40,000 nt of DNA, from NCBI RefSeq assembly GCF_014180685.1, contig NZ_JACEHF010000001.1, positions 97,976 through 137,975 of the forward strand, given 5' to 3'. The stretch comes from Nocardioides pelophilus. Lineage in GTDB: Bacteria; Actinomycetota; Actinomycetes; Propionibacteriales; Nocardioidaceae. The position numbers and the translations under genes were made by a program. Below, piece by piece: positions 4,951 to 33,873 of this stretch. Within the stretch, counting starts at the first letter, position 1; each line of letters starts with the position of its first letter. Under the pieces are notes generated by a model, which saw nothing but the letters and a program-made list of their open reading frames with translations, searched no databases and had not been told where the DNA came from.

Positions 4951-4964
4951 ACGAACACAAGGAG

Positions 4965-5729: not shown

Positions 5730-6112
5730 CGACCGGTCCGTGGCGGGCGGGGACCTGAGCGTTCCGGCACCGTGCCGAACGAGACCCGGTGGGCGCCGGC
5801 GTGAGCCAAGGCGTTTCCCAGTTGAGGCGAAGGTCGGTCGGAAAGGTTCGTCTCGAGAACTGGCTCTTGAGGATCTGGAGGTCGCGCCCGGACACGTCAT
5901 TGGTGATGAACGTGACCAGGACGAGCGACTCGAGCGCGGAGAAGCCGACAACGTGGGTACGACGGCGGAGGGATGACGCCACCGCGGCGCGGCACTCCGC
6001 CCCTGATTGCGGCGGCTACCTGTCGTTGTCGAAGCCCTTGACCTGACCGTCATTACCGGCCGTGCAAATCATCCACCATGCCAAGGTGCGTGACTGGCTG
6101 CTCACCGTCCGT

Positions 6113-6849: not shown

Positions 6850-7728
6850 ATGACCACCACGAACGAGCTCCCCCGCACCGAGCACTCCATCCGCGTCGGC
6901 CACCGCGACATCTTCGTGATCGAAGCCGGCACGGGCGACCCGGTCGTCCTGCTTCACGGGGGCGGCGCAGGCGCAACCGGGGGCTCGAACTACTCGCGCA
7001 ACATCGAGGCGCTGGCCGCCCACTTCCGCGTGATCGTCCCCGACATGCCGGGCTACGGGCAGTCCTCGAAGACTCTCGACCACAGCGATCCCTTCGGCGA
7101 CCTGGCCAGCGCGATGCGCGGCCTGCTCGACGAGCTCGGCATCGACAAGGCCCACTTCGTGGGCAACTCGTACGGCGGCGCCGCGGCCCTTCGCTTGGCG
7201 ATGGACCGGCCCGACAAGGTCGACAAGTTGATCCTGATGGGCCCGGGCGGCATCGGCACCACTCGCGGGCTGCCCACCAAGGGCCTCAACAGCCTGCTGA
7301 GCTACTACGGCGGCGAGGGGCCGACCCGCGAGAAGCTGGAGACCTTCATCCGGGAGTACCTCGTCTTTGACGGCGCGAGCGTGCCGCAGGACCTCATCGA
7401 ACTTCGCTACCAGGCCAGCATCCAGCCCGAGGTCGTCGCGAACCCCCCGCTTCGGCGCCCGTCAGGGCCGACCGCACTCAAGACGCTGATCAGGATGGAC
7501 TTCACCCGCGACAAGCGGCTGGCCAGCGTGCAGGCACCGACCCTGGTGATCTGGGGCCGAGACGACAAGGTCAACCGGCCCGCCGGCGGCGTGACCCTGG
7601 CCAACACCATGCCCAACTGCGACCTCTTCCAGGTGGCCAACACCGGCCACTGGGTGCAGTGGGAACGGGCGGAGCTGTTCAACGCGATGGCGATCGACTT
7701 CTTCGGCAGCGACAAGGCGCAGCCGTGA
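6850..7728 (+). CDS. Alpha/beta hydrolase, meta-cleavage-product (C-C bond) hydrolase, BphD/HsaD/MhpC-like
   Basis: 'VVLLHGGGAGA', nucleophile elbow 'GNSYGG', 'LILMGPGG', 'TGHWVQWE'. It sits next to an extradiol dioxygenase. Confidence 0.85.
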   Translation: MTTTNELPRTEHSIRVGHRDIFVIEAGTGDPVVLLHGGGAGATGGSNYSRNIEALAAHFRVIVPDMPGYGQSSKTLDHSDPFGDLASAMRGLLDELGIDKAHFVGNSYGGAAALRLAMDRPDKVDKLILMGPGGIGTTRGLPTKGLNSLLSYYGGEGPTREKLETFIREYLVFDGASVPQDLIELRYQASIQPEVVANPPLRRPSGPTALKTLIRMDFTRDKRLASVQAPTLVIWGRDDKVNRPAGGVTLANTMPNCDLFQVANTGHWVQWERAELFNAMAIDFFGSDKAQP

Positions 7729-8762
7729 GCGACTTCTTCCGGCCCAACACCGACGGGTCGGTCTTCGGCGCCGTCCACCTCGGCTACCTGGTGGTCGAGT
7801 CGCAAAGGCTTACCGACTGGCGCCGCTTCGGCGCCGACGCGATCGGCCTCCACGTCGACGAGGTCACCGAGGACGTCCTGCGCTTCCGGCTCGACGACCG
7901 CGAGTGCCGGTTCCTGATCCAGCGCGGACCAGCCGAGGACCTGATGGCGGTCGGCTGGCACGTCGACGACCACGAGACGTTCGACCGGATCGTCAAGCGC
8001 GTCACCGAGCGCGGCGTACCCCTCGCCGAAGGCACCCCCGAGGAGGCTGCCCTGCGCGGTGTCGAGCGGCTGTGGCGGTTCGCCGGCCCCAAGGGCATCG
8101 TCCAGGAGATCTTCACGACCCCGACCACCACCAGCAGGCCGCTGCGGATGATCAACAGCGGCTGGGTCACCGGCGAGGGCGGCATGGGCCACGTCGCGAT
8201 CACCTCACGCGACCCGCGTGGCATCCACGGCTACTACAACACCGTCTTCGACTCCCGGCTCTCTGACTTCATCGACGAGAACATCAGCGGCCTGACGTTG
8301 AAGATCCGGTTCCTGCGGGTCAACGAGCGCCACCACTCGATTGCGGTCGCCAACGTGCAGGGCCTCAACATCGACCCCATCCGCACGCGAGCCCAGCACG
8401 TCAACATCCAGGCAGCATCGCTCGAGGACATGATCAGCTCCTATGAGCGGGTCCGGCGTCTTGGGTTCCGGATGGCCTGGTCGGTCGGCCAGCACACCAA
8501 CGACCGCGAGCTCTCCTTCTACTGCGTGACGCCGAGCGGGTTCGAGCTCGAGGTCGGCTGGAACCCGATCGTTATCACCCCCGAGCTCGAGGCCGCCTGG
8601 CAGGTCGCCACCCATCAGGGCATCAGCATCTGGGGCCACACCCCCGTCCACGACGGGGTCCTCGACAAGCTCGGCCAGCTGCGGCAAGCCGCCCGCAACG
8701 CCCGTCGTCCAGAGATCAACGTTCCCGAACTCAGCACCCCGTTCACAGGAGCCCCGGCATGA
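7725..8762 (+). CDS. Type I extradiol ring-cleavage dioxygenase (VOC superfamily, BphC-like)
   Basis: 'HLGYLVVES', 'MGHVAITSRD', 'RFLRVNERHHSIAV', 'GFELEVGW' are consistent with His/His/Glu iron ligands. The start is set at GTG 7725, which overlaps the hydrolase stop (GTGA); the track start 7659 lies inside the upstream gene. Confidence 0.8.
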   Translation: MSDFFRPNTDGSVFGAVHLGYLVVESQRLTDWRRFGADAIGLHVDEVTEDVLRFRLDDRECRFLIQRGPAEDLMAVGWHVDDHETFDRIVKRVTERGVPLAEGTPEEAALRGVERLWRFAGPKGIVQEIFTTPTTTSRPLRMINSGWVTGEGGMGHVAITSRDPRGIHGYYNTVFDSRLSDFIDENISGLTLKIRFLRVNERHHSIAVANVQGLNIDPIRTRAQHVNIQAASLEDMISSYERVRRLGFRMAWSVGQHTNDRELSFYCVTPSGFELEVGWNPIVITPELEAAWQVATHQGISIWGHTPVHDGVLDKLGQLRQAARNARRPEINVPELSTPFTGAPA

Positions 8763-19108: not shown

Positions 19109-19705
19109 ATGAGTGCGACCGAACGCCGCATCCGCGCAGCAGCCATCCGGCTGTTCGCGGAGCGCGGCCACGCCGACGTCTCGATCAGCGACCTTGCCGC
19201 CGAGGCGGGCGTGGCCCGCGGCACGCTCTACCGCAACGTCGGATCGATAGATGCGTTGTTCGACCAGGTCCGCGGGGACCTGGCTGTCGAGCTGCACCAA
19301 GCCAACGTCGAAGTGATGGACGCCGCAGGCATCACCGATCCCCCGCTTCGCCTCGCGGTCGGAATGCGAATGCTCGTGCGCGGAGCCCATGCGGATCCCC
19401 CGCTCGGCCAGTTCCTCGCGCGGTTCGCGCTGACCGATGAATCCTTGCGCAGCATGGTCGCGGGGCCGCCCATGGCAGACGTTGCGGCGGGCATCAAGGC
19501 CGGCCGCTACACCGTCACAGCAGGTCGCGACCTCAGCGTCGCCTCGCTGATCATGGGCGCGACGGTCAGCGCGATCTGGATGGTGCTCCAAGGCCACCAG
19601 GCCTGGCGCGACGCCGGCACCGACGCAGCCGAACTGGTGCTGCGCGCACTCGGCGTCGATCCGATCGAAGCCCGCGAGATAGCGACCGAGCCACTGCCCG
19701 AGTGA
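19109..19705 (+). CDS. TetR-family transcriptional regulator
   Basis: 'RRIRAAAIRLFAERGHADVSISDLAAEAGVARGTLYRNVGSIDALF' is a TetR HTH. Start set at ATG 19109 (internal Met of track ORF 19043..19705). Confidence 0.85.
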   Translation: MSATERRIRAAAIRLFAERGHADVSISDLAAEAGVARGTLYRNVGSIDALFDQVRGDLAVELHQANVEVMDAAGITDPPLRLAVGMRMLVRGAHADPPLGQFLARFALTDESLRSMVAGPPMADVAAGIKAGRYTVTAGRDLSVASLIMGATVSAIWMVLQGHQAWRDAGTDAAELVLRALGVDPIEAREIATEPLPE

Positions 19706-20055
19706 CAACTCGTCCGGGCTGCCGATCACAGGCCGAGGTCCCGGCTCTGGTGGTCATCATTGCCTCGGCGGACCGGATCGCCGCACAGACACCTGGGGAC
19801 CTCGCCAATTCACTACATACGGCTCCGACCAGGTTTTCGGGGCATAAACGCGGCATGGATCGAATCTCATTCGCGGCCCCCACGTCAGGTCAACTAGAAC
19901 CACCAACCGTCCGAGGCCGCCGCGAGTGCGGGTTGCGTGTGACGCGAGTGGCGTGCGCGCAACGAAGGGGCTGCCCGTCCCCTGGCATTCACACCACCGC
20001 CTTCACCCCGTCGCCGACGTGGCGACGCGCGCGAGTCTCATCCAGGCGACCGCGT

Positions 20056-21432
20056 CTACACGCTGGCACCACGCAGTGAGTAAAGGGGTTCGATCCCGTA
20101 GGTGCGCGTCACCCGGTACGTCGCCACGTTGCTGGGGTCCAAGATCGCCGCTGGGGGCGCTGCCGGCAAGCCGAGAAGTTCGTCACGAAGCGACGGCGAC
20201 GTTGGCTCGTCCGTGCCGTTCGCGACACCGTCTGAATCGAAGAAGAGCACGAACGTCTGTCTGCCGGTTTGGACACTGGGTAGAACGATCCCGTCCAGGT
20301 CGACTGCAGCGACCCGACGAAGATACTCAGTGACGACTTGCGTGGGCACGTACTCGACGTGCTGGCGACCATCCGGAATCACGGGCGCCGTTATCGCGCT
20401 CACGAAAGATCCCAGGAACGAAAGCATCCGGTACTCCCGACGTCGCCCTTGGTCGAAGGGAGACGGCAGGCGTGGTCGAACCGTGAGGTCAAGGACGGTC
20501 AGATCTCGAGTGGTAATGAAACGTCCGACGACCGCGAGGGGGTCGACGCCGTGCCCTGCAATCTCGGCGACCGCCGTTTCAGGATCGGAGGATCCGTAGA
20601 ACAGCGAGATTCCCTGGGGAGACATGCGGTTGGCCGCCGCCCTACCTCTCGGAGCGGGCCCCAGGGCCTCTGCGGTCGGGGAAATCGCGCCTGGCTTCTC
20701 GCAGAGTCGGCCTCTGAACACTGGCGTCCCTGCGGGCAGCGATCGCACGAGACCGTTCTTCTCGTTGACGTACTCCCGAAGTTTGCGGAGGAAGCGTGAT
20801 GTCGGGTCGTGGCGCGTGTCGTCATCCAGGAAGACGAAACGCGCCTCGTGCTTCACGGTTTCAGCAAACTGCGTCCACTCGTAGTCGAGATCGTCAGTGT
20901 CCGCCGCTGTCCCCCAGGTCGTCCACTCGTTGTCGTCGCCAATCGCACTCGAGACAAGCTCAAGGGCGTCATCGATGACCGCGGGCTCGAACGCGTCAGC
21001 GGCCAACTCGTAGACCGCCTCGCGCGTGTCGAACTGGGGACCAACGTAGACGCCGTCCTCGTTGTCCCATGGCAACTCATCGGACGTCGTGAAGAAGTAC
21101 CGGAAGGATTCGATGAACGTCGCCATGAGAGTCTCGACCGGAACTACAGCTGGCTCGTCCGCCTCTTCGCCACAAAGGCCGCAGACTCCGGGCGTGATTT
21201 CTTCGCGGAGATCGGCTTCGAGTGCGGGATCGATGACATGAGTTAGACAGATCGATCCCTCGACGTCGTCGTAGCCGCGGGCCGCGAGTTCTTCCGCCCA
21301 CCTCTTCGCTAGACCCATGGCGTCATCATGATGCTCATCGAGCCTCGGTTCCCTTCTTGGGCAGGTTGGACGCTTGATAACCGTCGGCTGAAAGTCCCTG
21401 CACTTGGGCGTACCACTCGGGATGTGCGGCAC
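20056..21432 (-). CDS. RES-domain protein with a HEPN/RES-associated N-terminal domain (putative NAD+-targeting effector)
   Basis: C-terminal RES signature in order: 'AANRMSPQGISLFYGSSDPETAVAEI', 'EYVPTQVVTEYL', 'GIVLPSVQ'. The N-terminal acidic region has 'GSICLTHVIDP...GVCGLCGEE'. GTG 21432 lies 11 bp after the pAgo stop; ATG 21318 ('MGLAKRWAEELA') is an alternative start. Confidence 0.75.
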   Translation of the reverse strand: MPHIPSGTPKCRDFQPTVIKRPTCPRREPRLDEHHDDAMGLAKRWAEELAARGYDDVEGSICLTHVIDPALEADLREEITPGVCGLCGEEADEPAVVPVETLMATFIESFRYFFTTSDELPWDNEDGVYVGPQFDTREAVYELAADAFEPAVIDDALELVSSAIGDDNEWTTWGTAADTDDLDYEWTQFAETVKHEARFVFLDDDTRHDPTSRFLRKLREYVNEKNGLVRSLPAGTPVFRGRLCEKPGAISPTAEALGPAPRGRAAANRMSPQGISLFYGSSDPETAVAEIAGHGVDPLAVVGRFITTRDLTVLDLTVRPRLPSPFDQGRRREYRMLSFLGSFVSAITAPVIPDGRQHVEYVPTQVVTEYLRRVAAVDLDGIVLPSVQTGRQTFVLFFDSDGVANGTDEPTSPSLRDELLGLPAAPPAAILDPSNVATYRVTRTYGIEPLYSLRGASV

Positions 21433-21443
21433 TCAACTTCTGT

Positions 21444-22868
21444 CTACATGAAGAGGCGGAACTGGTAGCTGTCATCGGGGAGGTCGGGGACGCGTCCGAT
21501 CATCTTCGCCAGCTTCTGACTGTACGAGATCGTGACCGGTGTGTGGCCGTAAAGAGCGTCGTTGTTCCAGTCGAGCTTTGAGAGGGCGAGGATCTCGGCT
21601 GCGGGCACTTCGAGAGGCCCCTGTCCTGCGTCGCGCTCGAAGGAGATGGGCATTGGCAGTGCCTTCGCGGCCTGGTTGTACTTACCTCCGCGCACTCCAA
21701 CGCCTTGTGCCGTGCCGGATACCCAGAGGAGCGCCTCGTGGTAGGAGAGGTACTGCAGGGAACCTCGATCTACAGGCCAGTCGTGTGGCTCTGCACCCTT
21801 GTTGTCCTTGTGTTCACGGAGGGCGACCCCAGTCCATGGGGTCTGGGAACGCACCTGCAGGCATTCGATTTCGGGCACGGCCGCGCTCCAGGCGTCGAAA
21901 ACGCCGGCGATCTCATCTGGGGTCCAGCGGGTCGTCTTGTGCGCGACAAGACGGGCTGGCATGGCTCCCGCACGACGGCGCTGGTACAGACTCGCGCTGC
22001 GGGTCATGACGGTGTGCATCTCCTCGCGGGTCAGGTGTGGGTTGTCAAGGTCGCGGTCGGCGCCGACGTTGTACGCGATGAACTCGAACCCGCCGCCCTC
22101 GGCGTCGAACACTTGCGAGCAGCAGGTGACGAACTCGTTGGCCGTACCTCCACGGATCGCGTATGCCAGACCGATGTAGGCGGTGTCGGTCGGCGTCGGC
22201 TGGACTATCCGGAAGGGGACGCCCCCGGCCTTGGTCAGCAGCGCGATCGAGAGGCGCCAGTACATCGAGCAGTACAAGGGGAACTGAAGCGCGCCCGCCT
22301 CGCGCACCACTTGGATCGGGCAGGCCAAGGGTGCAGCGGTCGCCTTAAGGCGGTCGTGCAGATCGTAGGAGCCGTCTGGGCTGCGGCGGAGCGGCTCCCA
22401 GGCGCGAGGGAGAAGAAGCACAATCACGTCCCAGCTGTCCCTGATCGATTGCAGCTGCGCAACTGCTCGCGCGATGACTTCGCTGAGCCGTTCGTGAGCG
22501 TCTGAGCCTGTACCCGGGGCGTCCGAGCTCAGGTCGACGTGCGCGGCTCGCTGAGGTAGCAGCTCCGCGCGAACCAGATTGGTGAACCCGGGGAAACGGG
22601 GCACGTAAGCGTGCCGGTCACTGGGCTCGTGTGCCAAAGTGGCACCCCTTAGGAAGGCGTAGAGCATTTCCCGCTGCCCAGTCATGGTGATCGTGGCGAC
22701 GCGCACAACTCCGGTCGGTGGCCCGGCATAGGGGCCGTGTTGAAGCAGCCCGAGCAGCGGGTTCCCGGCCGTTCGCGGCCTCGCAGAATTGTCGAACTTC
22801 AGCAGGGGTTCCGGGAGCCAGGCGTGGGGGGCCCACGGCTGGCCGGGCTGTAGGGCACTAGCACTCAT
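21444..22868 (-). CDS. Short prokaryotic Argonaute (MID + catalytically inactive PIWI)
   Basis: 474 aa. MID 5'-end pocket pattern 'DLHDRLK...PIQVV...LLTKAGGVPF' (HK-type). 'AYIGLAYAIRGG' stands where active Agos have GxDV, so the first catalytic Asp is missing. Argonaute-type C-terminus 'YQFRLFM'. ATGA overlap with the upstream SIR2-APAZ gene. Confidence 0.85.
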   Translation of the reverse strand: MSASALQPGQPWAPHAWLPEPLLKFDNSARPRTAGNPLLGLLQHGPYAGPPTGVVRVATITMTGQREMLYAFLRGATLAHEPSDRHAYVPRFPGFTNLVRAELLPQRAAHVDLSSDAPGTGSDAHERLSEVIARAVAQLQSIRDSWDVIVLLLPRAWEPLRRSPDGSYDLHDRLKATAAPLACPIQVVREAGALQFPLYCSMYWRLSIALLTKAGGVPFRIVQPTPTDTAYIGLAYAIRGGTANEFVTCCSQVFDAEGGGFEFIAYNVGADRDLDNPHLTREEMHTVMTRSASLYQRRRAGAMPARLVAHKTTRWTPDEIAGVFDAWSAAVPEIECLQVRSQTPWTGVALREHKDNKGAEPHDWPVDRGSLQYLSYHEALLWVSGTAQGVGVRGGKYNQAAKALPMPISFERDAGQGPLEVPAAEILALSKLDWNNDALYGHTPVTISYSQKLAKMIGRVPDLPDDSYQFRLFM

Positions 22869-24664
22869 GGTGCTCTCCAGCTGTACGCGGAGGTCGCCCC
22901 GACGCGGAACCCGCCGAACGTCTTCGGATCTGCGGCGTACGGAAGGCGGAGTGACGCTGCTTTACGACCCGGCGCGATTGCCGTGGTCCACGCCTGGATC
23001 AGTTCGGCCCACTTCTCGTTCTTCTTACGCTGCACCCACCGCTCGCGGCGCCACTCCGACGCCGAGTCCGGCTCGTCCTGCTGTTCGTCAGAGCGTTCCC
23101 AGCGATCGACCCAGGTGTACGGCGAGAAGATGAGCCAGGTAAGCCCCCACCGGAATTCCACGTGAAGTCTGACAGCCTCGGCCCACCGCCTTGGCTGGCC
23201 GTCACGGTCGGGCCCGTAGCGGTCAATGAGTCGCCCGGCCACGTGGCCGCCGTAGACGTTCTTGAACATCTGCAGTAGTTCAGTGCGCTCGGGGGTCAGA
23301 TCGTCCCATTCCTCGAGGACCACTTCGTTGTGCCGGCGCGTGATCCTGGGCCAGGCGGGTAGGGCCTTGGCGATGGCTCGGGTCAGTCCGTCGACAAGAA
23401 GCGCGTGTGGGCCAGGCTCCAATACGCCCGACGTGAGATCGAGGTCAACAACTTCGGCGCGGCTCCCGACCAGATCGCTGAACTCCTCGCCGTTGCCCCA
23501 TCCCCAAACGGCACCGCCTGCCATGACCGCGACGCCGCGCCAGTCGGTCTCTCTGCATCGTGCCCGAAACTCCTCGTGGTCGACTCCGGAGATTGTGGCG
23601 CGCAAGGCTGTCGCCGGTGCGGACAGAATGGGGATGGCGTTGTACCGAATGATCGGGTAGTGCTTACCTGTTGCCGTCGGCGGCGCTGCCGCAGTTCGCT
23701 GGGCCCGCGGCTGCAGGCCTGAGACGTACTTGCGTGCCTCGGCAGTCAGATCGGCTTGCTTGGCCAAGTCGACCATCAACTCATCGAACGTCTCCAGTTC
23801 GAGCAGGTGCGCTGACACTCCGAGATCCTGTGCGTCCTGCAGCAGAGAGATAACACGGTTCGATGTGCGGTCACGGTTGCGCGTGAACCACCAGAGCCCG
23901 GCTGGCCAGGCACCGTCGACCTTAGAAGCTGACTCGAGCATCTCCATAACGCTGTCGTCGCGGCCGCTGTACCCGACTACGGCGAGCCCAATGCTCCGGC
24001 TCGCATCGTGAACGGATTGCCGTAAGACCGCGTCCTGGCTGGCGAGCTCGGACTTAAGGTTCTTCAACGCCGACTCTTGAAAGTCACCATGCAGCTTGAT
24101 CAGCGTGGGGTGGGCCGACGGCTTGAGGATCTGTCGTGCCCGGTCGGAACTTCCGAGGGCAGCGACGTTGAGGAGCGTCGGCTTGTTGGCATCGCCCACC
24201 GTGGCGAACGACTCGGCGGCGGCCTGCTCGATCAGCGCGTCGAAGTTGGTGGTGACCGTGATGTTCACCAGGCCCGCACTGATGAGGGCGCCAAAGATGC
24301 GCTGGCCATAACTGGGTTTGCGGCCGGACAGGAGACCCTGAAGGTACTCGTGGCGCGAGGACTCCTCGGGCAGTGCTAGCTCGAATGCCGTGGAGTAGTC
24401 GTCGTCGGTCCCGAACGGGACCATCCCATTGTGGCCGTTGAAGTACGCATCGAGGGCAGCCTGTATGGCTGGGTCGTTGGGATGCAGGTGTTGGCGGACG
24501 AGCCCGTGCCTATCGGCGTAGAGGCGGAGCAGAAGATCGTCGCGGATCTGGCTCGCGGTCGGCAGTCCCGCAAGAGCGCTAGCTCCAGCGCCGAGTAGCC
24601 AAGCAAAGCGCTGGGGCTTTATAGCCCAAGCGCGGATGAAGTTGCCGCGGTCCTCGAGGTTCAC
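22865..24664 (-). CDS. SIR2-APAZ protein (NADase effector partner of short pAgo)
   Basis: SIR2 motifs 'WLLGAGASALAGLPT', 'TVTTNFD', 'LIKLHGDF', 'VVGYSGRD', followed by a ~300-aa C-terminal region in the position of APAZ. 599 aa; GTG start. Confidence 0.85.
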   Translation of the reverse strand: MNLEDRGNFIRAWAIKPQRFAWLLGAGASALAGLPTASQIRDDLLLRLYADRHGLVRQHLHPNDPAIQAALDAYFNGHNGMVPFGTDDDYSTAFELALPEESSRHEYLQGLLSGRKPSYGQRIFGALISAGLVNITVTTNFDALIEQAAAESFATVGDANKPTLLNVAALGSSDRARQILKPSAHPTLIKLHGDFQESALKNLKSELASQDAVLRQSVHDASRSIGLAVVGYSGRDDSVMEMLESASKVDGAWPAGLWWFTRNRDRTSNRVISLLQDAQDLGVSAHLLELETFDELMVDLAKQADLTAEARKYVSGLQPRAQRTAAAPPTATGKHYPIIRYNAIPILSAPATALRATISGVDHEEFRARCRETDWRGVAVMAGGAVWGWGNGEEFSDLVGSRAEVVDLDLTSGVLEPGPHALLVDGLTRAIAKALPAWPRITRRHNEVVLEEWDDLTPERTELLQMFKNVYGGHVAGRLIDRYGPDRDGQPRRWAEAVRLHVEFRWGLTWLIFSPYTWVDRWERSDEQQDEPDSASEWRRERWVQRKKNEKWAELIQAWTTAIAPGRKAASLRLPYAADPKTFGGFRVGATSAYSWRAP

Positions 24665-24770
24665 CTTCCATCCCTCAGTAGTGCGATGAAGGGTCGCTCT
24701 GCCGGGATCCTCCAGGTGAGTTCCCTGCTGCCGCGGAAGTGGCGGATCTCGAGTCGCCGGCGGTCCACGG

Positions 24771-25556
24771 TCAACCGATGTTGGTGCAGGTCACTGCAGC
24801 GACTGCGTCGTGGCTATGGATGCTCTCGAAGTTCCGAACCCGCACCTCGTGCGCGACTCCAAGCGCACGGCATGCCTGAGAAAGATCGCGCGCCATGTCC
24901 TCAACGAATGCCGGGTTGTCGTGCGCATTCATCGTGACGACACGCTCGTCGACGCGCTTGATGATCGGAAAGACCGGAGTTGACCCAACGTCGCGGATCA
25001 TGTCGAACTGACGATGAACCGGCAGCGGATACACGTCGTCGGACATCCCCAAGACGGTGAGGCTCACTCGACTGCGCTGATTGTGAGCGCCGTAGTCGCT
25101 GATCGCCTTGCTGCACGGACAAAGACTCGTGACGTCGGTCTCCGTTGTCGTGCGCGCCACGACGGCGTCGTCGTTCAGCGCGGCATGAATCGAGACGTCG
25201 CTGGCTTGCCATGCCTCGATGCCGGACGCGGGCGAGACGACCTCGAATGCAATCGGCAGTGACACGGCCAGCCGCACACCGTCGACGTCCAATCGGTCGG
25301 CAGCTGCCTTGAGGGTGGTGGGCAGTTCCCGCGGGTCGAAGTCACGGAGGTGCTCGTGTACGAGTTCGAGCATCCGGCTCATGTGCGTGCCGCGGCGATT
25401 AGCGGGGAGTCGAACCGTCACATCAACGGATGCAACCCCGCTCTGCAGTGTCGTTCCGTCGCTGAACCGGACTGGGTATCGCACTCCAGCGACTCCAACC
25501 TCGTCGAGTTCGATCCCTCGACGGTCAGCCTGGTCCTGAATGTCAGGCAGCTGCAT
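24771..25556 (-). CDS. folE2: GTP cyclohydrolase IB (FolE2)
   Basis: 'NRRGTHMSRMLELV', 'TSLCPCSKAISDYGAHNQRS', 'FESIHSHDAVA' are FolE2 hallmark blocks. Start at the internal ATG 25554-25556. Confidence 0.9.
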   Translation of the reverse strand: MQLPDIQDQADRRGIELDEVGVAGVRYPVRFSDGTTLQSGVASVDVTVRLPANRRGTHMSRMLELVHEHLRDFDPRELPTTLKAAADRLDVDGVRLAVSLPIAFEVVSPASGIEAWQASDVSIHAALNDDAVVARTTTETDVTSLCPCSKAISDYGAHNQRSRVSLTVLGMSDDVYPLPVHRQFDMIRDVGSTPVFPIIKRVDERVVTMNAHDNPAFVEDMARDLSQACRALGVAHEVRVRNFESIHSHDAVAAVTCTNIG

Positions 25557-25560
25557 TCGC

Positions 25561-25929
25561 TCACGCCCCTCGGTACACGCAGCCGGAAGTACAGGTCTCT
25601 CGGACCCTGATCTCATTGAGGTTTGGAAGCACCGCGATCAGGCGATCCCAGATCCACTTGGCGAGAACCTCGCTGGTCGGGTTCTCGAGCCCTTCGATCT
25701 CGTTGAGGTAGTAGTGATCGAGTTGGTCTTCGAGGGGCTTGAAGGCGTCCTTGATGTCGCCGAAGTCCTGAACCCAGCCGCTCTCGTCGCCGACGGGCCC
25801 GAGGACATGGATCTCGACCTTGTATGAGTGACCGTGGAGGCGAGCGCACTTGTGACCCTCTGGGACGTTCGGTAGGCGGTGCGCCGCTTCGAAGGAGAAC
25901 TCGCGGTAGATCTCAGCTGTGTGTGTCAC
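25561..25929 (-). CDS. queD: 6-carboxy-5,6,7,8-tetrahydropterin synthase
   Basis: '[28 protein letters not shown]' (Cx3HGH zinc/catalytic motif) and '[13 protein letters not shown]'; 122 aa. Confidence 0.9.
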
Positions 25930-26561
25930 GGAATCCCCAGGTACTTGTGGGTCTGCAGGCTGAGCTGCCAGCGCGGGTGCTCCATGCAGAACTTGACTGC
26001 GAGCTCGGTGTTGGCGGGAAGGTCGGGGCCATCCATCGGCTGGACGCGGAAGCTGGCGAAGTCCAGGTGCTCGAATGACACAGGGTCTACGCCGCCCTGG
26101 GGGACGACGAACTTCAACTCCTGTCCGCTCTGGACCACCAACTCGGCGCCAACCTTGGGGCTGACGCAGAGCCAGTCGATCCCGGCCGGCGGCTCGATCG
26201 TTCCGTTGGTCTCGACCGCTACGTAGAAGCCTCGAGCCTTGAGGGCCCGTACGGCGAGAGCGTCAAGTTGCAGCAGCGGCTCCCCGCCGGTGCAAACAAC
26301 CATGGGTTCACCGCCGGAACCATGGGGCCACCTCGATGCAACTGCGTCGGCGAGAGCCTCGGCGTCGCGGAACTTGCCGCCGCCTTCGCCGTCGGTGCCA
26401 ACGAAGTCCGTGTCGCAGAACTTGCAGATGGCGCGCTCTCGGTCCTTCTCGCGCCCGGTCCAGAGGTTGCAGGAACTGAATCTGCAGAACACGGAAGGGC
26501 GTCCAGCATGGGCACCCTCACCCTGGAGGGTGTAGAAGATCTCCTTGACCTTGTAGGTCAC
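25926..26561 (-). CDS. queE: 7-carboxy-7-deazaguanine synthase (radical SAM)
   Basis: '[47 protein letters not shown]' carries the CX14CX2C-type QueE cluster motif. ATGA overlaps on both sides. Confidence 0.9.
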
Positions 26562-27256
26562 GCCTGCGACCCCTGGTACTCAAGCGGATCCTCGAGACCC
26601 GCCTCAGCGAAGCCCTTGAGCCTGAGCAGGCAAGAGTCGCAGTGGCCGCATGGCCGGCCTTGGTCGTCCGGGTCGTAACACGAGGACGTGAGCGAGTAGT
26701 CCACTCCGAGCCGCTTGCCGATTTCGACGGTCTGAGCCTTGGTCAGCTCTATGAGCGGAGTGTGGATCCTGAGTTCGTTCCCCTCGACTCCGGCGCGGGT
26801 GGCGAGGTTCGCCATGCGCTCGTAGGCGGCGATGAACTCGGGCCTACAGTCCGGGTAGCCCGAGTAGTCGAGCGCGTTCACGCCGATGAAGATGTCGGTC
26901 GCTCCCACCACCTCCGCGTAGGCCAGAGCGAACGACAGGAAGACCGTGTTGCGGGCCGGCACGTAGGTGATCGGGATCTCCTCGCCGGAGATCTCCGCGG
27001 CGGAGTCATGCTTGGGGACCTCGACGTCGGCCGTGAGGGCGGATCCGCCGAACACGCGTAGGTCGATGTCACACACAACATGCCGAGAGACTCCGGCTGC
27101 CTCCGCGACGCGCTGCGCAGCGGCGAGTTCGATCTCGTGGCGCTGACCGTAGCGGAAGCTCAGGGCGTACGGTTCGAAACCCTGGTCCTTGGCGATCGCG
27201 AGCACGGTGGTGGAGTCCAGTCCCCCGCTCAGCAGTACGACGGCCTTCCTCGTCAT
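26558..27256 (-). CDS. queC: 7-cyano-7-deazaguanine (preQ0) synthase
   Basis: '[14 protein letters not shown]' PP-loop and C-terminal zinc cysteines '[21 protein letters not shown]'. Start is placed at the third Met (ATG 27254-27256) behind ggagagga; the track start 27274 is the alternative. Confidence 0.9.
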
Positions 27257-27292
27257 GCGCCTCATCCTCTCCATCTGTACACAACCTCGGTC

Positions 27293-27349
27293 CTACTCCA
27301 TAGCAACGAAACTACACGATAGAGTAGCCGCGTCGAACATGTAGTTTCG
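27293..27349. promoter_or_regulatory. Interleaved inverted repeats (pseudoknot-capable element / operator) in the queC-dpd divergent intergenic region
   Basis: Pair 1: cgaaactaca (27307-27316) with tgtagtttcg (27340-27349), 10 bp perfect. Pair 2: ctactc (27293-27298) with gagtag (27322-27327). The order a-b-a'-b' gives H-type pseudoknot topology on either transcript. This is the AT-richest line I counted in the island (29 G/C out of 60 nt). Confidence 0.35.
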
Positions 27350-27363
27350 GAAGCTGTGAGGTC

Positions 27364-28233
27364 ATGTCGCGACGGAAACTGACGATCATCGTCACCTGCA
27401 CTGACAGGAAGTTGGCGACCCCACGCCCCGAACTGATGGCTCGCAATCTTCCCCGTGGGGAGGTGGAAGCCCGCGCCCGGGTGTGGACGAAGTCAGTGGC
27501 CCGATCGCAAACGACCTCGCCGCTGATCGATCTGTACCGTGGCGAGACCTGGAGCCAGGTCAAGCGACTCATCGCCACCGCACGAGATGTCGGCTTCGAA
27601 CCGGACGTACTGGTAGCTTCAGCCGGACTGGGGCTTCGCTCCCTGAGCGACACGGCGCCTGCGTACGCGGCAACCTTCAGCGCTGGCCACGCTGATTCAG
27701 TTGCGGTCTCGATGGCCGAGACTCGGGCTTGGTGGAGAGCACTCCCCCGAACTTCGGCCCCCGTAGGCGGGCGTGCCCTGTGGGTGCTCTCAGAGAGCTA
27801 CTCACGGGCGATAGGAACCGACCTGTTAGAAAGCACCGCACCCAGCGAACTGCTGGTCTTTGGTGGCTCCCGGGAGATCCCCGATGACTTCCGGATCGCA
27901 TCAGATCGCTGGCTCCGCCAGGCCCTCGGTGGCACCACGACGAGCCTCAACCTTCGCGCGGCTACGCGGTGGCTAACGCTCACGAGGAACACGGATCCAT
28001 TTGCCGAAGACGCCCCTGTACTTTGGCGCGACTGGTCGGAGCGTTCACGCCGCCAGGAGGAGTACAACCGCAAGGCGATGTCGGACAGCGCAGTGCTTGA
28101 GTTCATCAGTGCCCTCAGGACACACGATCCGGCAATCTCCAAGACTCGCGCTCTCAAGTCGCTACGGGACTCGGGCTTGGCCTGCGAGCAGCGGCGCTTC
28201 TCAGACCTCTTCCTACAGGCGGCAGCCCGGTGA
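27364..28233 (+). CDS. Hypothetical protein, first gene of the dpdA operon (possible YaaA/DUF6884-like fold; occupies the place a DpdC-type function might take)
   Basis: 289 aa. Its stop overlaps the next start (GTGA). 'KLTIIVTCTDRKLA' and 'LIDLYRGETWSQV' are reminiscent of the strand-S/C-x-x-K plus 'lYxG' pattern of DUF328/DUF6884-type proteins, but I cannot confirm this. Confidence 0.5.
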   Translation: MSRRKLTIIVTCTDRKLATPRPELMARNLPRGEVEARARVWTKSVARSQTTSPLIDLYRGETWSQVKRLIATARDVGFEPDVLVASAGLGLRSLSDTAPAYAATFSAGHADSVAVSMAETRAWWRALPRTSAPVGGRALWVLSESYSRAIGTDLLESTAPSELLVFGGSREIPDDFRIASDRWLRQALGGTTTSLNLRAATRWLTLTRNTDPFAEDAPVLWRDWSERSRRQEEYNRKAMSDSAVLEFISALRTHDPAISKTRALKSLRDSGLACEQRRFSDLFLQAAAR

Positions 28234-29366
28234 CTAACCCAGATTGGCTGATACGCCGAGCGCTGAAGGTGCTGCAGAGCGACGAGACGCCGCTTTACCT
28301 GTTCACCCTCGCGGCCGAGGAGGTCGACCTGGTTGCCGATGTTGCCCGCATCGGCCGGGACGAGGCGGGAAAGTTGATCGGCTATCAGCGCCCCGAGAAG
28401 CAGAAGCACGTCAAGCAGATCCAGGATTACCTGGACTCCGAAGATCCCCTCTTCCCCAACGGGCTCATCCTCGCTTTGCCACCGGAGGTCAAGTTCAAGT
28501 CCAGCCGCGGCCCGACGACGACCGACGGGCTCGCCGTGGCTGGGACCTTGGAGATCCCGATCGCGACGGACCGGGAAGGTCCCCGACCGGCATGGATCGT
28601 TGATGGGCAGCAGCGCAGTTTGGCGCTTGCTCGAACCAGGAACCGACGCCTGCCCGTCCCGGTTGCTGGGTTTGTGGCTCCCACCCTGGAGCTCCAGCGT
28701 GAGCAGTTCCTACGCGTGAACACCGTTCAGCCTTTGCCAACCGGTCTCGTCACCGAACTACTGCCCGAGATCTCCAGCGTGCCGTCCGCACGCATGGCCA
28801 CAAGACAGTTGCCCTCAGCGCTCGTCGACATGCTGAATCAGGACAAGGACTCGCCTTTCCGCGGGATGATCCGGCGAGCATCCACGCGGGCCGAAGAGAA
28901 AAAGCGGGCCGTCGTCACTGACACCAGCCTTGTGGAGGCCATCCGCGAATCAGTCGAGTCACCGTCAGGGGTTCTCTTCCCGTACCGAAACATCGCCAGC
29001 GGGACAACCGACACCGAGGGCATCCGGCGGGTGCTCTTGGCCTACTGGGGGGCGGTGCGAGAGACGTTCCCTGAGGCGTGGGGCAAGTCCGCGAACAAGA
29101 GTCGGCTCATGCACGGGGTTGGCATCCGGGCGATGGGTCGGGTCATGGACCGGGTGATGACCCATGTGCGCGACGATGACCCGCGGGCCCAGGAGCGCGC
29201 TGCGCAGGAACTGGGGCTGATCGCGGAGAAATGCCGATGGACTAGCGGCACTTGGGAGGATCTGGGTGTCGCGTGGAATGACCTGCAGAACACGCCGCGA
29301 CACATCAGCGCGCTCTCGAACTACCTCGTGCGCACGTACCTTGCTGAACGGACCGGTCGAAAGTGA
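28230..29366 (+). CDS. dpdB: DGQHR-domain (here DGQQR) ParB/DndB-like protein, DpdB-like paralog 1
   Basis: 'GYQRPE', 'PAWIVDGQQRSLAL', 'FLRVNTVQPLPTGLVTELLP', 'KSRLMHGVGIRAMG', 'CRWTSGTW', 'LQNTP'. Immediately upstream of dpdA, and its stop overlaps the dpdA start (GTGA). Confidence 0.75.
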   Translation: MTNPDWLIRRALKVLQSDETPLYLFTLAAEEVDLVADVARIGRDEAGKLIGYQRPEKQKHVKQIQDYLDSEDPLFPNGLILALPPEVKFKSSRGPTTTDGLAVAGTLEIPIATDREGPRPAWIVDGQQRSLALARTRNRRLPVPVAGFVAPTLELQREQFLRVNTVQPLPTGLVTELLPEISSVPSARMATRQLPSALVDMLNQDKDSPFRGMIRRASTRAEEKKRAVVTDTSLVEAIRESVESPSGVLFPYRNIASGTTDTEGIRRVLLAYWGAVRETFPEAWGKSANKSRLMHGVGIRAMGRVMDRVMTHVRDDDPRAQERAAQELGLIAEKCRWTSGTWEDLGVAWNDLQNTPRHISALSNYLVRTYLAERTGRK

Positions 29367-30589
29367 AGTTCTACTTCCCAGACAGCCAGGACCTCGTCAG
29401 TCCGACCTACGACTTCCTACGCGACGAGTACGTGGCACATCGAGTCCGGCAAAGGGACGACCGATACGCCCACGAGGTGCTTGAACGGGCCCCTTACCAC
29501 GGCGTGCTTGTCAGCAAGTCGATCGTCGACGGTTCCATCAAGGGCGCAGGCAAGTACTCGGGCGCCCAGCGCGCCCGCATGTATCGGATGGGCGTACGGC
29601 GCTTCTTCCGCCTCCCAGACGAGGTGGAGACGCTCGGCGACAACGGCGCCTTCAACTACGTCGATGAAGAAGTGCCTCCAGTCACGGCGGAGGAAACCCT
29701 CGACTTCTACGACGAGTGCGGCTTCGATGCGGGGGTCAGCACCGACCACATCATTTTCGGTTACGCCCCGGGCGCCACGGAAGCAGATGTCGACCCGCAG
29801 TGGGCAGAACGTCGACGTCTGACGTTGAGGCTTGCCGAGCAGTTCATCGAGGCAGTCCGCGAACGACGAAGCACCGTGCAACCGGTTGGCGCCGCGCAGG
29901 GCTGGAGTCCCGATAGCTTCGCCGACAGCGTGCACGCCCTTCAGGACATGGGATACGAACGAATCGCGCTGGGCGGCATGGTCCCTCTCAAGACCAACCA
30001 GATCCTCGCCTGCCTCACTCGCATCCATGAAGTACTCAAGCCCGAGACCGAACTGCATCTTCTCGGCATCACGCGGATCGACTCGATGGATGACTTCGCC
30101 GACTTCGGCGTTGCAAGCTTCGACAGCACGTCGGCGTTCCGCCAGGCATTCATGGACGACCGGAAGAACTACCACACAGCTGAGCGGGCCTACGTAGCCA
30201 TCCGAGTCCCGCAAGTCGACGGCAACCCAACACTCAAGCGCGCCATCCTCGCCGGCGCGGTCAGCCAAAGGGAGGCGTTGACCGCCGAACGCGACGCCCT
30301 CAAGGCGCTCAGGGCCTACGACGGAACCGTGCGCGCCCGGCGGGCATGCATCGACGCACTCGGCGCGTACGAGGCGGTGTGCCAGTCCAAGAAGTCATAT
30401 CTAGCTGCATACGACGAGACACTCGCGGACGCGCCCTGGACGCGCTGCCGTTGCAAGCTGTGCACGCAACATGGCGTTGAGATCGCCATCTTCCGCGGCA
30501 CCGAACGCAACAAGCGTCGTGGGTTCCACAACATGTCGGTGCTCGCTCAACGCATGAGTGTTCTTAGGTCCAACACGAGGAGAGCCTGA
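29363..30589 (+). CDS. dpdA: TGT-like DNA 7-deazaguanine transglycosylase DpdA
   Basis: TIM-barrel TGT blocks 'LGDNGAFNY', 'ERIALGGMVPLK', 'LHLLGITR', 'ASFDSTSAFRQA'. Zinc site 'CRCKLCTQH...RGFHN' (CxCxxC...H). 408 aa, next to preQ0 genes and DGQHR-type proteins. Confidence 0.85.
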   Translation: MKFYFPDSQDLVSPTYDFLRDEYVAHRVRQRDDRYAHEVLERAPYHGVLVSKSIVDGSIKGAGKYSGAQRARMYRMGVRRFFRLPDEVETLGDNGAFNYVDEEVPPVTAEETLDFYDECGFDAGVSTDHIIFGYAPGATEADVDPQWAERRRLTLRLAEQFIEAVRERRSTVQPVGAAQGWSPDSFADSVHALQDMGYERIALGGMVPLKTNQILACLTRIHEVLKPETELHLLGITRIDSMDDFADFGVASFDSTSAFRQAFMDDRKNYHTAERAYVAIRVPQVDGNPTLKRAILAGAVSQREALTAERDALKALRAYDGTVRARRACIDALGAYEAVCQSKKSYLAAYDETLADAPWTRCRCKLCTQHGVEIAIFRGTERNKRRGFHNMSVLAQRMSVLRSNTRRA

Positions 30590-31698
30590 TGGCCGATCGC
30601 TACGAAATCCGGCTTCCCGCATTGCGGATCCGTCAGGGACAGCAGTACATCTACACTTTCGGCGTCGATGGCAAGCAGATCCACGACTTCGCAACAGTCA
30701 GTCGGGTCCACCGTCACGACATCGAACTCCAGGGCTACCAGCGTCCTGAGGTGCTCAGCCACATTCGAGCTATCCGCCGTTACCTCGAGTCCGATGGGGC
30801 AATGCTTCCCAACGCGATCGTGCTTGCCTTCGATGAACGGGTGAAGTTCGAGCCGGTAGGTTCCCGCAGCGTCGTTGACTACGTCGCCGCCGGCGAACTC
30901 GTCATTCCTGTCGATGAATCGCTGCCGGATGACGAGAAGCCCGCTTGGCTCGTGGACGGGCAGCAGCGAAGTGCCGCGATCCGCGATGCGGACCTCGCCG
31001 AGTTCGCAGTCGCTGCAGTCGGATTCATCGCCCACGGCGAAGCGGAGCAGCGCTCGCAGTTCATCTTGGTGAACAACACGAAGCCCCTGCCGAAGGGCCT
31101 CATCCATGAACTCCTGCCGGACACCAAAGGGCATCTCCCGACCGCATACGCCAAGAAGCAGTTGCCGGCGCAGGTGCTCACGCGTTTGAACTTCGGGCAA
31201 CGGGCGAAGGGCGAACCGTTTGCGGGACGAATCGCAACGCCCACCATGGCCGATGGCTACATCAAGGACAACAGCGTCCTGAAGATGATCGAGAACAGCC
31301 TCTACGACGGCGCCCTGTACCAATATCGCGATCCCGTGGACGGGAGCGGCGACATCGACCAGATCGTGTTGCATCTCAACTACTACTGGACCGTCGTGCA
31401 GGTGACCTTTCCCGACGCATGGGAACTCCCGCCCACCAAGTCACGCCTCACGCATGGCGCGGGCATTCAAGCACTCGGCTACGTGATGGACGCCTTGACC
31501 GACGGAACGCCTGCTGCTCGACTTCCGAAGCTTGGCATCGAGCACAAAATCGCGGCGCTTGCGGAGCATTGCGCGTGGACGAGCGGATCGTGGAACCTGG
31601 GTGGCGACGAACCGCGTCGGTGGAACGGCATCCAGAACACCCCAAACGATGTGAGGTTGCTGTCGAGTCACCTGCTGCGGGCCGTTCGACGAGCCTAG
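30589..31698 (+). CDS. dpdB: DGQHR-domain (here DGQQR) ParB/DndB-like protein, DpdB-like paralog 2
   Basis: Collinear with paralog 1: 'GYQRPE', 'PAWLVDGQQRSAAI', 'FILVNNTKPLPKGLIHELLP', 'KSRLTHGAGIQALG', 'CAWTSGSW', 'IQNTP'. 1-nt overlap (TGATG) with dpdA. Confidence 0.75.
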   Translation: MADRYEIRLPALRIRQGQQYIYTFGVDGKQIHDFATVSRVHRHDIELQGYQRPEVLSHIRAIRRYLESDGAMLPNAIVLAFDERVKFEPVGSRSVVDYVAAGELVIPVDESLPDDEKPAWLVDGQQRSAAIRDADLAEFAVAAVGFIAHGEAEQRSQFILVNNTKPLPKGLIHELLPDTKGHLPTAYAKKQLPAQVLTRLNFGQRAKGEPFAGRIATPTMADGYIKDNSVLKMIENSLYDGALYQYRDPVDGSGDIDQIVLHLNYYWTVVQVTFPDAWELPPTKSRLTHGAGIQALGYVMDALTDGTPAARLPKLGIEHKIAALAEHCAWTSGSWNLGGDEPRRWNGIQNTPNDVRLLSSHLLRAVRRA

Positions 31699-31704
31699 TT
31701 GGTT

Positions 31705-33873
31705 CTAGCCGCCGAGCGCTTCTTCCAGGGCGCGCAAGAAGCCGGAGTGGCCCTTCAAGCGCGGAAGGATCTGCTTCTCCCGCGGACGCACGGCGTCAAT
31801 CGCGCCCGTGGCTTGGTGCGCTGCATGCCAGGTATCGACAATGAAGTAGTCAGCCCTCTCTGCAAGGGACTTGAGCGCTTGGGTGGCGACCTCGTCGTGG
31901 TTCTCCTTCACGTCACCGACGGAACATAGCTTCGCGAGACGGGCCCTGAGGTGGGTCTCGACGCGGGGCAGAAGCGAGTAAATTCCGACGAGCTTGCCGT
32001 CGAGTGCCGACCACACGTCGCGCTCAATCTTCGGCGCCTCAATTTCCTGTGATGGCAACCCGAGGCCGGCGGCGAGCACTTCCACCTCTACCCGTTCTCG
32101 GAAGCTCAAGCGTCCGGAGTGCAGTCGGGCACCATCGATCATCAAGACCGCCAGCCCGGTGCGCTTCGAATCAACGGGGCACGGTGAATCGGCCACGAGC
32201 TCAAGTACGTTGATGCACCATCCGACCGCGTTGGGTGACGCGATCCGCTGCCAGATCTTGAGGGTTAGGTCGAGCACCTCTTCGTACTCCCCTGCCGAAG
32301 GACCCACTTCGAGCCAGGCGGCGAAGAGATCGAGGTAGGCGGAGCGAACCATTTCGCTGAAGTTGTCCTGTTCCGACAACAACGCCAGCACGACCTGACA
32401 GAAGTCGTTCGAGGAGCCGCCGGCCAAGATGCGGGCCGACTCCCGGCACAGTAGGTCGATGCATGCCCGCAGTTGATCCGCATTGGTTCCTCCGGACGCT
32501 TCGAGCAATGCATCGCACACGGCGGCGAGTTGCTGGGCGTCCAGAGTTCCGAGTTGCGGCCAAGCCTCCGCGTTGTTGCGGGCAACCGCGGCCGCATCCG
32601 CCCATCTCACGTCGCCTGCGAGCCTCTTGGCCCATTCGACCCAATCTGCGCAGGAGGCATCAACGAACTGCTCGAGCTCCGCCAGGTCTCTTCTGCCGTG
32701 CCTCGTGAGTTCGAGTGCCCCGCGCTTCCCGAGATCACGGACCGCAGCGAGCACGCGTGGCGCGTGCTCTACCTCGCCAGAATCGAGGATGGCCTGCAAG
32801 GCAAGTTCGGCATACCTGGCAGTGGGGTCTGTGATGAAGGTCGAGACCACGTCCGCGAGTCGGCCTTCCCGAAACGCCTCAGCAACAGGGTCGGCCACTG
32901 GCACAAGGACTGGAGCGTGACCCGGCAGGTCGGCTGGCGTGGCCGTCGCTTCACGCTCGGGTGCGCTGGCGAGCGCTTTCAACCGGTGTCGTTCTTCTGG
33001 CTCTTCGGCCCGCTCGAGAATCGAGGTCTGCCACTCGACATCTTCGTCCGCGAGTGCCGCCAAGAAGCACACTCCGCGACCTTCCGGCGTGGAAGGTACG
33101 CGCACGGACCGCACTAGCGGCCCGAACTCCCCAAGTACGCCGCGTTCGTTGAAGGCGATGCGGGGGTTCTCGTGCTCTGGTCCGGAGAGTTCCGTCCACC
33201 AGACCATTCGCAGCAAAGTCTCCGAAATCGCCCTCGGGCGACGCGTCTGCAGCAGCGCGCTGATATAAGGCATTGCCCGCATCTCGGCCCAGCGCCCGAA
33301 CGCGGCGAAGTACTCAATTCGCAGGTAACGAAGATTTTCGGCGCTCACATGGCCGTTGAGAACGATCTGGTCGAGCAGACTGCGGGCCGAATCGTCGTCC
33401 CGGCGCAGGAGTGCTAACCGGAAGTCGCGAAGGAGTTCACTGTTCGTCGGCTTGATCTCCAAGGCCGTCCACTGGCGCCCTCCGACCGAGGCGACCATGT
33501 CTTCGAGTCGCGCCAGCATCTCCGCTGCTCCGTTGGGCCTGTGGTCGACCCGCCGTAGGAACGACGCGCGGACCAGGCCCGTGGACTTCCATGCAGGCGG
33601 TAGTTCCGCATTCAGGCGTGATTCGGTGACCGTGTCGACGGACACTACGCCCGGACCGAGGAATGCAACGACCACCTCGCGTCCGCGACGTTGACCTTCG
33701 CTGTCCTCGCTGAAGAGGTAGAAGCCGTTCGTCCACGGAAGTACGAGCCACTCGCTCGCCCCCGTTCGGAACCTAGAGACCTGAGACTCGACGAGCCCCT
33801 CGATGCGGTCCACGAACGCTCCGAATCGACCGAGGTCGCCGATCAGGTCAGGGAGAGCGGTATCAATCCTCAC
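31705..33873 (-). CDS. Large hypothetical protein (722 aa), last gene of the helicase/PLD operon
   Basis: GTG start overlaps the PLD stop (GTGA). Codon bias looks coding throughout, and the sequence is mostly alpha-helical by eye. I recognise no catalytic motif (no Walker A, no nuclease motif). Any relationship to Dpd (for example DpdD) or DrmE-type proteins is untested. Confidence 0.65.
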   Translation of the reverse strand: MRIDTALPDLIGDLGRFGAFVDRIEGLVESQVSRFRTGASEWLVLPWTNGFYLFSEDSEGQRRGREVVVAFLGPGVVSVDTVTESRLNAELPPAWKSTGLVRASFLRRVDHRPNGAAEMLARLEDMVASVGGRQWTALEIKPTNSELLRDFRLALLRRDDDSARSLLDQIVLNGHVSAENLRYLRIEYFAAFGRWAEMRAMPYISALLQTRRPRAISETLLRMVWWTELSGPEHENPRIAFNERGVLGEFGPLVRSVRVPSTPEGRGVCFLAALADEDVEWQTSILERAEEPEERHRLKALASAPEREATATPADLPGHAPVLVPVADPVAEAFREGRLADVVSTFITDPTARYAELALQAILDSGEVEHAPRVLAAVRDLGKRGALELTRHGRRDLAELEQFVDASCADWVEWAKRLAGDVRWADAAAVARNNAEAWPQLGTLDAQQLAAVCDALLEASGGTNADQLRACIDLLCRESARILAGGSSNDFCQVVLALLSEQDNFSEMVRSAYLDLFAAWLEVGPSAGEYEEVLDLTLKIWQRIASPNAVGWCINVLELVADSPCPVDSKRTGLAVLMIDGARLHSGRLSFRERVEVEVLAAGLGLPSQEIEAPKIERDVWSALDGKLVGIYSLLPRVETHLRARLAKLCSVGDVKENHDEVATQALKSLAERADYFIVDTWHAAHQATGAIDAVRPREKQILPRLKGHSGFLRALEEALGG

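Follow-up and report, generated by a model that had tools for sequence, protein, structure and literature searches.

The window analysed here, a 40,000-nucleotide stretch of the actinobacterium Nocardioides pelophilus (assembly GCF_014180685.1, contig NZ_JACEHF010000001.1, forward-strand positions 97,976 to 137,975), carries on its minus strand a SPARSA pair, SIR2-APAZ followed by a short pAgo, and directly 3′ of it an open reading frame (ORF) for a RES-domain protein. The ORF listing confirmed what the initial annotation, made from the sequence alone, had reported: an ORF of 458 codons (20056..21432) on the same strand as pAgo, which starts at GTG 21432 after a gap of 11 nt from the pAgo ORF (21444..22868). 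As argued below, this gene very probably belongs to the recently described aRES family and forms an anti-phage system by itself, which adjoins SPARSA and the Dpd system of the same region but is independent of both.

The RES ORF is a real gene, because it has 142 homologues at E ≤ 1e-5, nearly all of which possess the same two domains. In an alignment of 20 sequences, the N-termini of almost all homologues coincide with M39 ('MGxAKxW...'), the methionine at 21318, and the identical N. pelophilus protein is 420 aa long in the NCBI annotation. Because of this agreement, we place the true start almost certainly at ATG 21318, so that the gene would span 20056-21318 and be separated from the pAgo stop codon by a 125-nt spacer. 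The 458-aa version starting at GTG 21432 was rejected, since the N-terminal alignment of homologues disagrees with it; the 38-codon extension to this GTG is common only to one over-called metagenomic ORF. The features of the gene are given below, with residues numbered on the 420-aa protein and with equivalent positions of the aRES of E. coli UC5, a family member discussed in the following paragraph.

20056..21318, minus strand: aRES gene, 420 aa, HEPN_RES_NTD1 plus RES, stop codon at 20056-20058 (from ORF, Pfam, alignment, homology and model)
21172..21249, minus strand: C24-x2-H27 ... C46-x2-C49 motif at the start of the N-terminal module, residues 24-49
20818..21195, minus strand: HEPN_RES_NTD1 (PF18870), residues 42-167 of 420 (from Pfam)
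20224..20652, minus strand: RES domain (PF08808), residues 223-365 of 420, predicted NAD+ phosphorylase (from Pfam and Foldseek)
20626..20628, minus strand: codon of R231, the 'R' of RES, mapped to R215 of E. coli UC5, invariant in 74 homologues
20563..20565, minus strand: codon of E252, the 'E' of RES, mapped to E236 of E. coli UC5, invariant in 74 homologues
20275..20277, minus strand: codon of S348, the 'S' of RES, mapped to S334 of E. coli UC5, invariant in 74 homologues

The initial annotation had read the ORF as a HEPN/RES-type N-terminal domain joined to a C-terminal RES domain, and this assignment held. The motifs it quoted are present in the translation, and Pfam matched both PF18870 (E 4.4e-18; 66.3 bits, gathering cut-off 27.4; 126 of 131 profile positions; residues 80-205 of the 458-aa version) and PF08808 (E 6.4e-18; 65.7 bits, gathering cut-off 23.2; residues 261-403 of 458). 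The RES domain is predicted to be a NAD+ phosphorylase catalytic domain, and HEPN_RES_NTD1 is presumed to be a sensor or regulatory module. Standalone RES-domain proteins of defence islands were described and named aRES by the Sorek laboratory in a preprint of January 2026 (Osterman et al., bioRxiv 10.64898/2026.01.28.702374), where they are operationally defined as proteins of 300-600 aa having a RES Pfam domain and PF18870 (Methods of that preprint). The window protein has both Pfam domains and a length of 420 aa (or 458 aa from the GTG). According to the same study, single-gene aRES from E. coli UC5, Klebsiella pneumoniae and Enterobacter chengduensis shield E. coli against diverse phages, with protection accompanied by growth arrest and NAD+ depletion. 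The products formed on infection are nicotinamide and ADP-ribose-1''-phosphate (ADPR-1''-phosphate), the latter of which the phage NARP1 pathway is unable to recycle. Active-site point mutations abolished aRES defence, R215A being among the mutants built (bioRxiv 10.64898/2026.01.28.702374).

The window protein shares with aRES not only the PF18870 + PF08808 architecture and the size class, but also homology along its full length and the six residues mutated in the aRES study. In BLASTP it matches the E. coli UC5 aRES (sequence from Table S4 of bioRxiv 10.64898/2026.01.28.702374) at 2e-23 over 351 residues that cover both domains. When a profile of 74 homologues was compared with the E. coli UC5 sequence by hhalign, the alignment spanned 331 columns and took in the N-terminal module, at a probability of 99.7% (E 1e-26). 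The mutated residues, predicted to bind NAD+ or to form the active site, are R182, R184, R215, Y225, E236 and S334 of the E. coli UC5 protein; they correspond to R202, R204, R231, Y241, E252 and S348 of the window protein, none of which varies among the 74 aligned sequences. C24, C46 and C49 of the N-terminal module are likewise invariant in the 74 homologues, and H27 is nearly invariant in the 20-sequence alignment. At the position matching this CxxH...CxxC the E. coli aRES has CxxC...CxxC, the first metal-binding knuckle thus being different; the motif probably represents a pair of zinc-binding knuckles. Judged by architecture and homology, the RES gene beside SPARSA is an actinobacterial addition to an already described family. 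The arrangement, taken earlier to be unlike the familiar short-pAgo systems, is not novel, the gene being of the standalone aRES type that has since been described and named. Neither PADLOC-DB v2.0.0 (2023) nor NCBIfam recognised the RES gene product, a silence that fits the recent date of the family.

A PDB sequence search with the aRES protein and its profile returned nothing significant, the sole match being the TRIM41 B-box at a chance-level E-value of 0.56. In the AlphaFold2 model (pLDDT 93.7, pTM 0.88), the best Foldseek matches in the PDB are RES toxins, namely Pseudomonas putida Xre-RES (9r35/6gw6) and ParT (6d0i), with PARP domains of the ADP-ribosyltransferase (ART) fold next in the ranking. 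The top match, 9r35_A, has a probability of 1.00 and a TM-score of 0.54 on the target; the E-values for 9r35, 6d0i and 6gw6 are modest, 6e-3 to 1e-2. As a prediction, the NAD+-directed activity proposed in the initial annotation was correct.

The RES domain and the ART-like fold are also common to toxins of toxin-antitoxin (TA) pairs. P. putida Xre-RES, ParST, MbcTA and NatRT all resemble the window protein in the catalytic domain with R/E/S and in the predicted NAD+ phosphorylase activity, and literature cited in the aRES study (bioRxiv 10.64898/2026.01.28.702374) gives RES chemistry as the same. The gene might then be the toxin of an Xre-RES/MbcTA/NatRT-like pair, with a role in persistence or addiction, whose antitoxin was lost, is unrecognised or lies elsewhere. 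We consider this very unlikely. The matched PDB RES-toxin chains have 144-160 residues, whereas the window protein has 420 aa, about 220 of them in an extra, conserved N-terminal module. Upstream, where the cognate antitoxin gene normally lies, there is pAgo and not an Xre/COG5642-type antitoxin, the aRES module (21421->19947, see below) contains no other ORF and the small ORFs flanking it have no Pfam match, so the earlier remark that no Xre antitoxin lies beside the gene was right. The homologues are likewise solitary in varied contexts, and the two-domain family defends against phage without a partner (bioRxiv 10.64898/2026.01.28.702374). The mode of control would also differ: RES toxins of TA pairs are controlled by their antitoxins, whereas control of the window aRES is presumed to be intramolecular and infection-triggered.

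A second alternative would make the RES protein part of SPARSA, as a third component or backup effector activated directly or indirectly by, or together with, guide-directed recognition by SIR2-APAZ/pAgo and providing a second NAD+-destroying route of different chemistry. The position of the gene speaks for it: same strand, 125 nt (11 nt from the GTG) after pAgo, and no detectable terminator between the two. So does the chemistry. Both effectors target NAD+, SIR2 yielding ADP-ribose (ADPR) and RES yielding ADPR-1''-phosphate, and since the latter route resists phage NARP1 (bioRxiv 10.64898/2026.01.28.702374), the pairing would be adaptively sensible. If the RES protein belonged to SPARSA, it might be expected to recur with it, and we therefore looked at gene neighbourhoods from both sides.

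On the pAgo side, the sample comprised 80 SPARSA loci from other genomes, one genome per species, with pAgo identity of 40-75%. A recognisable SIR2-APAZ is located upstream of pAgo in 76 of the 80 loci, and at least 1.4 kb downstream of pAgo is available in 71. None of the 80 loci contained a RES homologue by tblastn, by the full-length hidden Markov model (HMM) at E ≤ 10 or by the RES-domain HMM with filters off; only noise at E > 1 was obtained, and in the positive controls every locus was recovered (87/87 and 80/80). A 599+474-aa pair is likewise present in the two closest relatives of the pAgo, with 88% and 78% identity, but their loci have no RES; instead, an unrelated 151-aa ORF lies 3′ of pAgo in one and an opposite-strand relaxase in the other. 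On the RES side, neither pAgo nor SIR2-APAZ was found (tblastn, pAgo HMM) in any of 87 loci of aRES homologues, made up of the first seven and 80 from a metagenome scan. The closest RES homologues with readable context (83%, 77% and 64%) adjoin a PIN gene, a type I restriction-modification (R-M)/AbiE cluster and unrelated genes, and none is beside pAgo. The count of RES genes next to related SPARSA operons (0/71) places their frequency below roughly 4%, which is not above the genome background of aRES, reported as 4% across all genomes and 1.37% within Actinomycetota (bioRxiv 10.64898/2026.01.28.702374). Thus, the enrichment of RES next to short-pAgo operons that a third component would entail is not seen (0/80), and with it the suggestion in the initial annotation of a further SPARSA effector loses its footing.

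What lies 3′ of pAgo at other SPARSA loci points the same way. The first ORFs downstream of 74 SPARSA pAgo genes are heterogeneous and include Abi_C (5), integrases (5), DUF1156 methylases (4) and R-M parts. Several of these neighbours are themselves single-gene defence modules (Abi_C, Shedu SduA, DUF6602), co-oriented with pAgo and 3-60 nt away. Unrelated defence genes thus occupy the same 3′ position, and the N. pelophilus arrangement is one case of a general pattern in which single-gene defence modules are found 3′ of SPARSA. The adjacency of SPARSA and aRES is best explained by clustering of independently mobile defence modules. Validated aRES proteins, moreover, protect as single genes. 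Taken with the break in homology described next, this makes a third-component role scarcely credible; the other possibility raised at the outset, an independent single-gene abortive-infection module that by chance sits beside the operon, is the one supported, the module type being aRES.

Homology to related loci breaks exactly between the pAgo and RES genes. In blastn, similarity to the closest SPARSA locus (L088/L089, 80% nucleotide identity) runs 24665->21441, beginning at the start of SIR2-APAZ and ending 3 nt beyond the stop codon of pAgo. Similarity to the closest aRES locus (L007, 85.7% over 1493 nt) runs 21421->19947 and takes in 103 nt ahead of the ATG and 109 nt beyond the stop codon. 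The ends of the two blocks delimit the following features.

21422..21440, minus strand: SPARSA/aRES junction, 19 nt, containing GTG 21432
21319..21421, minus strand: 5′ flank of the aRES module, defined by blastn homology to L007 and not part of the SPARSA module
19947..20055, minus strand: 3′ tail of the aRES module, kept with L007 beyond the stop codon, with a GC-rich hairpin (GUCGCC-ACGUC-GGCGAC)

The conserved 5′ flank probably carries the aRES gene's own promoter, because it is kept in L007, where the upstream neighbour is divergent and unrelated. The initial annotation had named a start at ATG 21318 with its own promoter as the alternative to an appended operon gene. The start is supported, and the roughly 100 bp upstream do travel with the RES gene in L007; the promoter itself we infer. 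Upstream of the ATG, at -12..-7 (window 21325-21330), a NATGAT hexamer is kept in the window, L007, L004, L094 and L095. The closer actinobacterial aRES homologues have no Shine-Dalgarno sequence, while more distant ones have GGAGG-type ribosome-binding sites. The retained hexamer and the absence of a Shine-Dalgarno sequence suggest that aRES mRNA is leaderless in the closer actinobacterial sub-lineage. The hairpin in the 3′ tail, conserved with L007, has a fold z-score of -1.8, and the terminator consensus scan was negative there; it could possibly, on weak grounds, be a terminator. Around the modules, only chance-level short repeats were found and no flanking direct or inverted repeats marking a mobile element; tRNA and Rfam scans of the window gave no match.

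Several points weigh against reading the gene as an independent aRES. The protein comes from an actinobacterium and is just 23% identical to validated E. coli aRES, and the experimental work covers enterobacterial aRES and no actinobacterial one: infection-triggered NAD+ loss, ADPR-1''-phosphate formation and phage protection were shown only for the former (bioRxiv 10.64898/2026.01.28.702374). The source on aRES is a preprint. The 80- and 87-locus samples bound the association at roughly <4%, and cooperation in this one strain may still occur. Finally, unlike other aRES genes, the one in the window lies on the same strand as pAgo and unusually near it, at a distance of 125 nt downstream and with no terminator detected between the two; the sigma-70 scan found no promoter, and the case for an own promoter rests on conservation of the flank with a single locus, L007.

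This last set of observations makes read-through co-transcription possible, and aRES might then be independent in function but expressed mainly by read-through of the SIR2-APAZ/pAgo mRNA. The start would still be ATG 21318 and the aRES identity would be unchanged. The pAgo-aRES gap fits such a scheme, its predicted RNA fold showing no unusual structure (z = 0.44). On the other hand, about 100 bp upstream of the gene are shared with L007, where the divergent neighbour means that the gene must be transcribed from a promoter of its own, and the -10-like NATGAT is kept at -12..-7 from the ATG. The consensus scans for promoters and terminators, which gave zero sites in 19700-25200, used an E. coli-type sigma-70 consensus that is not tuned to actinobacterial promoters and is uninformative for an actinobacterium. 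We regard expression mainly by read-through as unlikely, though a realistic prospect. A more far-reaching proposal, that SPARSA and aRES are co-transcribed in this strain and act as a layered NAD+-depletion pair, or in a stronger version that SPARSA activity or products help trigger aRES, strikes us as highly doubtful. NARP1 phages can recycle the ADPR made by SIR2 but not the ADPR-1''-phosphate made by aRES, so in such a pair escapers of one arm would be caught by the other.

For the preferred reading, an independent aRES, a mechanism can be proposed by homology to the characterised aRES proteins. In the uninfected cell the protein would be held inactive, presumably via its N-terminal module with the CxxH...CxxC motif, an obvious candidate for sensing or autoinhibition. 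Phage infection would activate it, and the RES domain would then catalyse phosphorolysis of NAD+ to nicotinamide and ADPR-1''-phosphate. The resulting collapse of NAD+ would arrest the infected cell, so that phage propagation is blocked and the infection aborted. The enzymatic activity, the phage trigger, the N-terminal role and transcription from an own promoter are all what we infer for the window aRES.

The assignment removes a candidate "three-gene SPARSA" and places the gene in a defined family, which should be useful for annotators of actinobacterial defence islands, as PADLOC-DB and NCBIfam leave it unrecognised. The locus is also a natural case of two NAD+-depleting systems with different products 125 nt apart. 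As such it is a possible test bed for asking if the members of such a pair back each other up against phage pathways that reconstitute NAD+, although this idea is generic to defence islands and does not draw on locus-specific evidence.

Among the aRES homologues, the 77%-identical one (L002; also L003 and L004) is flanked by co-oriented ORFs of 284 aa and 286 aa without a Pfam match (4577-5431 and 6918-7778 in L002), the upstream one stopping 22 nt before the aRES start. L001 encodes an aRES protein identical to that of L002, and the upstream stretch there was called as an opposite-strand 248-aa ORF. Because of this discrepancy, the co-oriented ORF upstream of the L002 aRES may be a gene-calling artefact in GC-rich DNA.

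The genes upstream of aRES were assigned as SIR2-APAZ and short pAgo in the initial annotation, and the searches agree:

22865..24664, minus strand: SIR2-APAZ, 599 aa (Pfam SIR2_2; PADLOC Aga_SIR2-PNTD1-PNTD2, 2e-141; PDB 8in8_B, 1.2e-48)
21444..22868, minus strand: short pAgo with MID-PIWI, 474 aa (PADLOC pAgo_I, 7e-160; PDB 8in8_C, 1.9e-89); context, not part of aRES

The two PDB chains, 'Sir2 superfamily protein' (8in8_B) and 'Piwi domain protein' (8in8_C), belong to a solved Sir2/Piwi complex. By these matches, SIR2-APAZ and the class I short pAgo of the window are a canonical SPARSA pair of the kind seen in 8in8, 8jkz and related complexes, as are their sizes of 599 + 474 aa and the 4-nt overlap between SIR2-APAZ and the start of pAgo. 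SPARSA resembles aRES in that both deplete NAD+; they differ in chemistry, as set out above. The public annotation gives the window pAgo as 407 aa (P0122, 86% coverage) versus the 474-aa ORF. Because the latter fits the homologue lengths (472-476 aa) and overlaps SIR2-APAZ by 4 nt, the deposited start was probably called too far downstream.

Directly upstream of SPARSA lies a Dpd 7-deazaguanine DNA-modification/restriction cluster, which begins at about 24.8 kb and reaches 39.5 kb or beyond (24771-39473). It includes four preQ0 genes:

24771-25616: FolE2
25561-25929: QueD
25926-26561: QueE
26558-27274: QueC

The Dpd genes are in the order DpdC, DpdB, DpdA, second DpdB, DpdD, DpdK and DpdJ. The two full-length DpdB paralogues that flank DpdA (28230-29366 and 30589-31698) both match PADLOC DpdB at about 1e-147. 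The G+C content of the Dpd region is below that of the flanking TetR/monooxygenase region. By its gene content, the window is a defence island made up of Dpd and SPARSA, with aRES at its edge.

Two kinds of neighbours recur 3′ of SPARSA pAgo genes elsewhere. Abi_C ORFs of about 260-280 aa follow pAgo on the same strand after a 3-4-nt gap in L038, L040 and L055 (Paraburkholderia; 7411-8184) and in L073 (an actinomycete metagenome-assembled genome, MAG; 5440-6282). Abi_C accounts for 5 of the 74 downstream neighbours and is thus commoner than the RES case; the four individually identified ones span two phyla. The recurrence might mean that Abi_C and SPARSA are truly associated, or that insertion is favoured at this site. 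DUF1156/methyltransferase ORFs of 919-1095 aa, co-oriented with pAgo and 4-95 nt after it, occur in Acidimicrobiia and Pseudomonadales MAGs (L039, L046 and L048, 7547-10306; L056, 7444-10731) and are probably adjacent defence systems.

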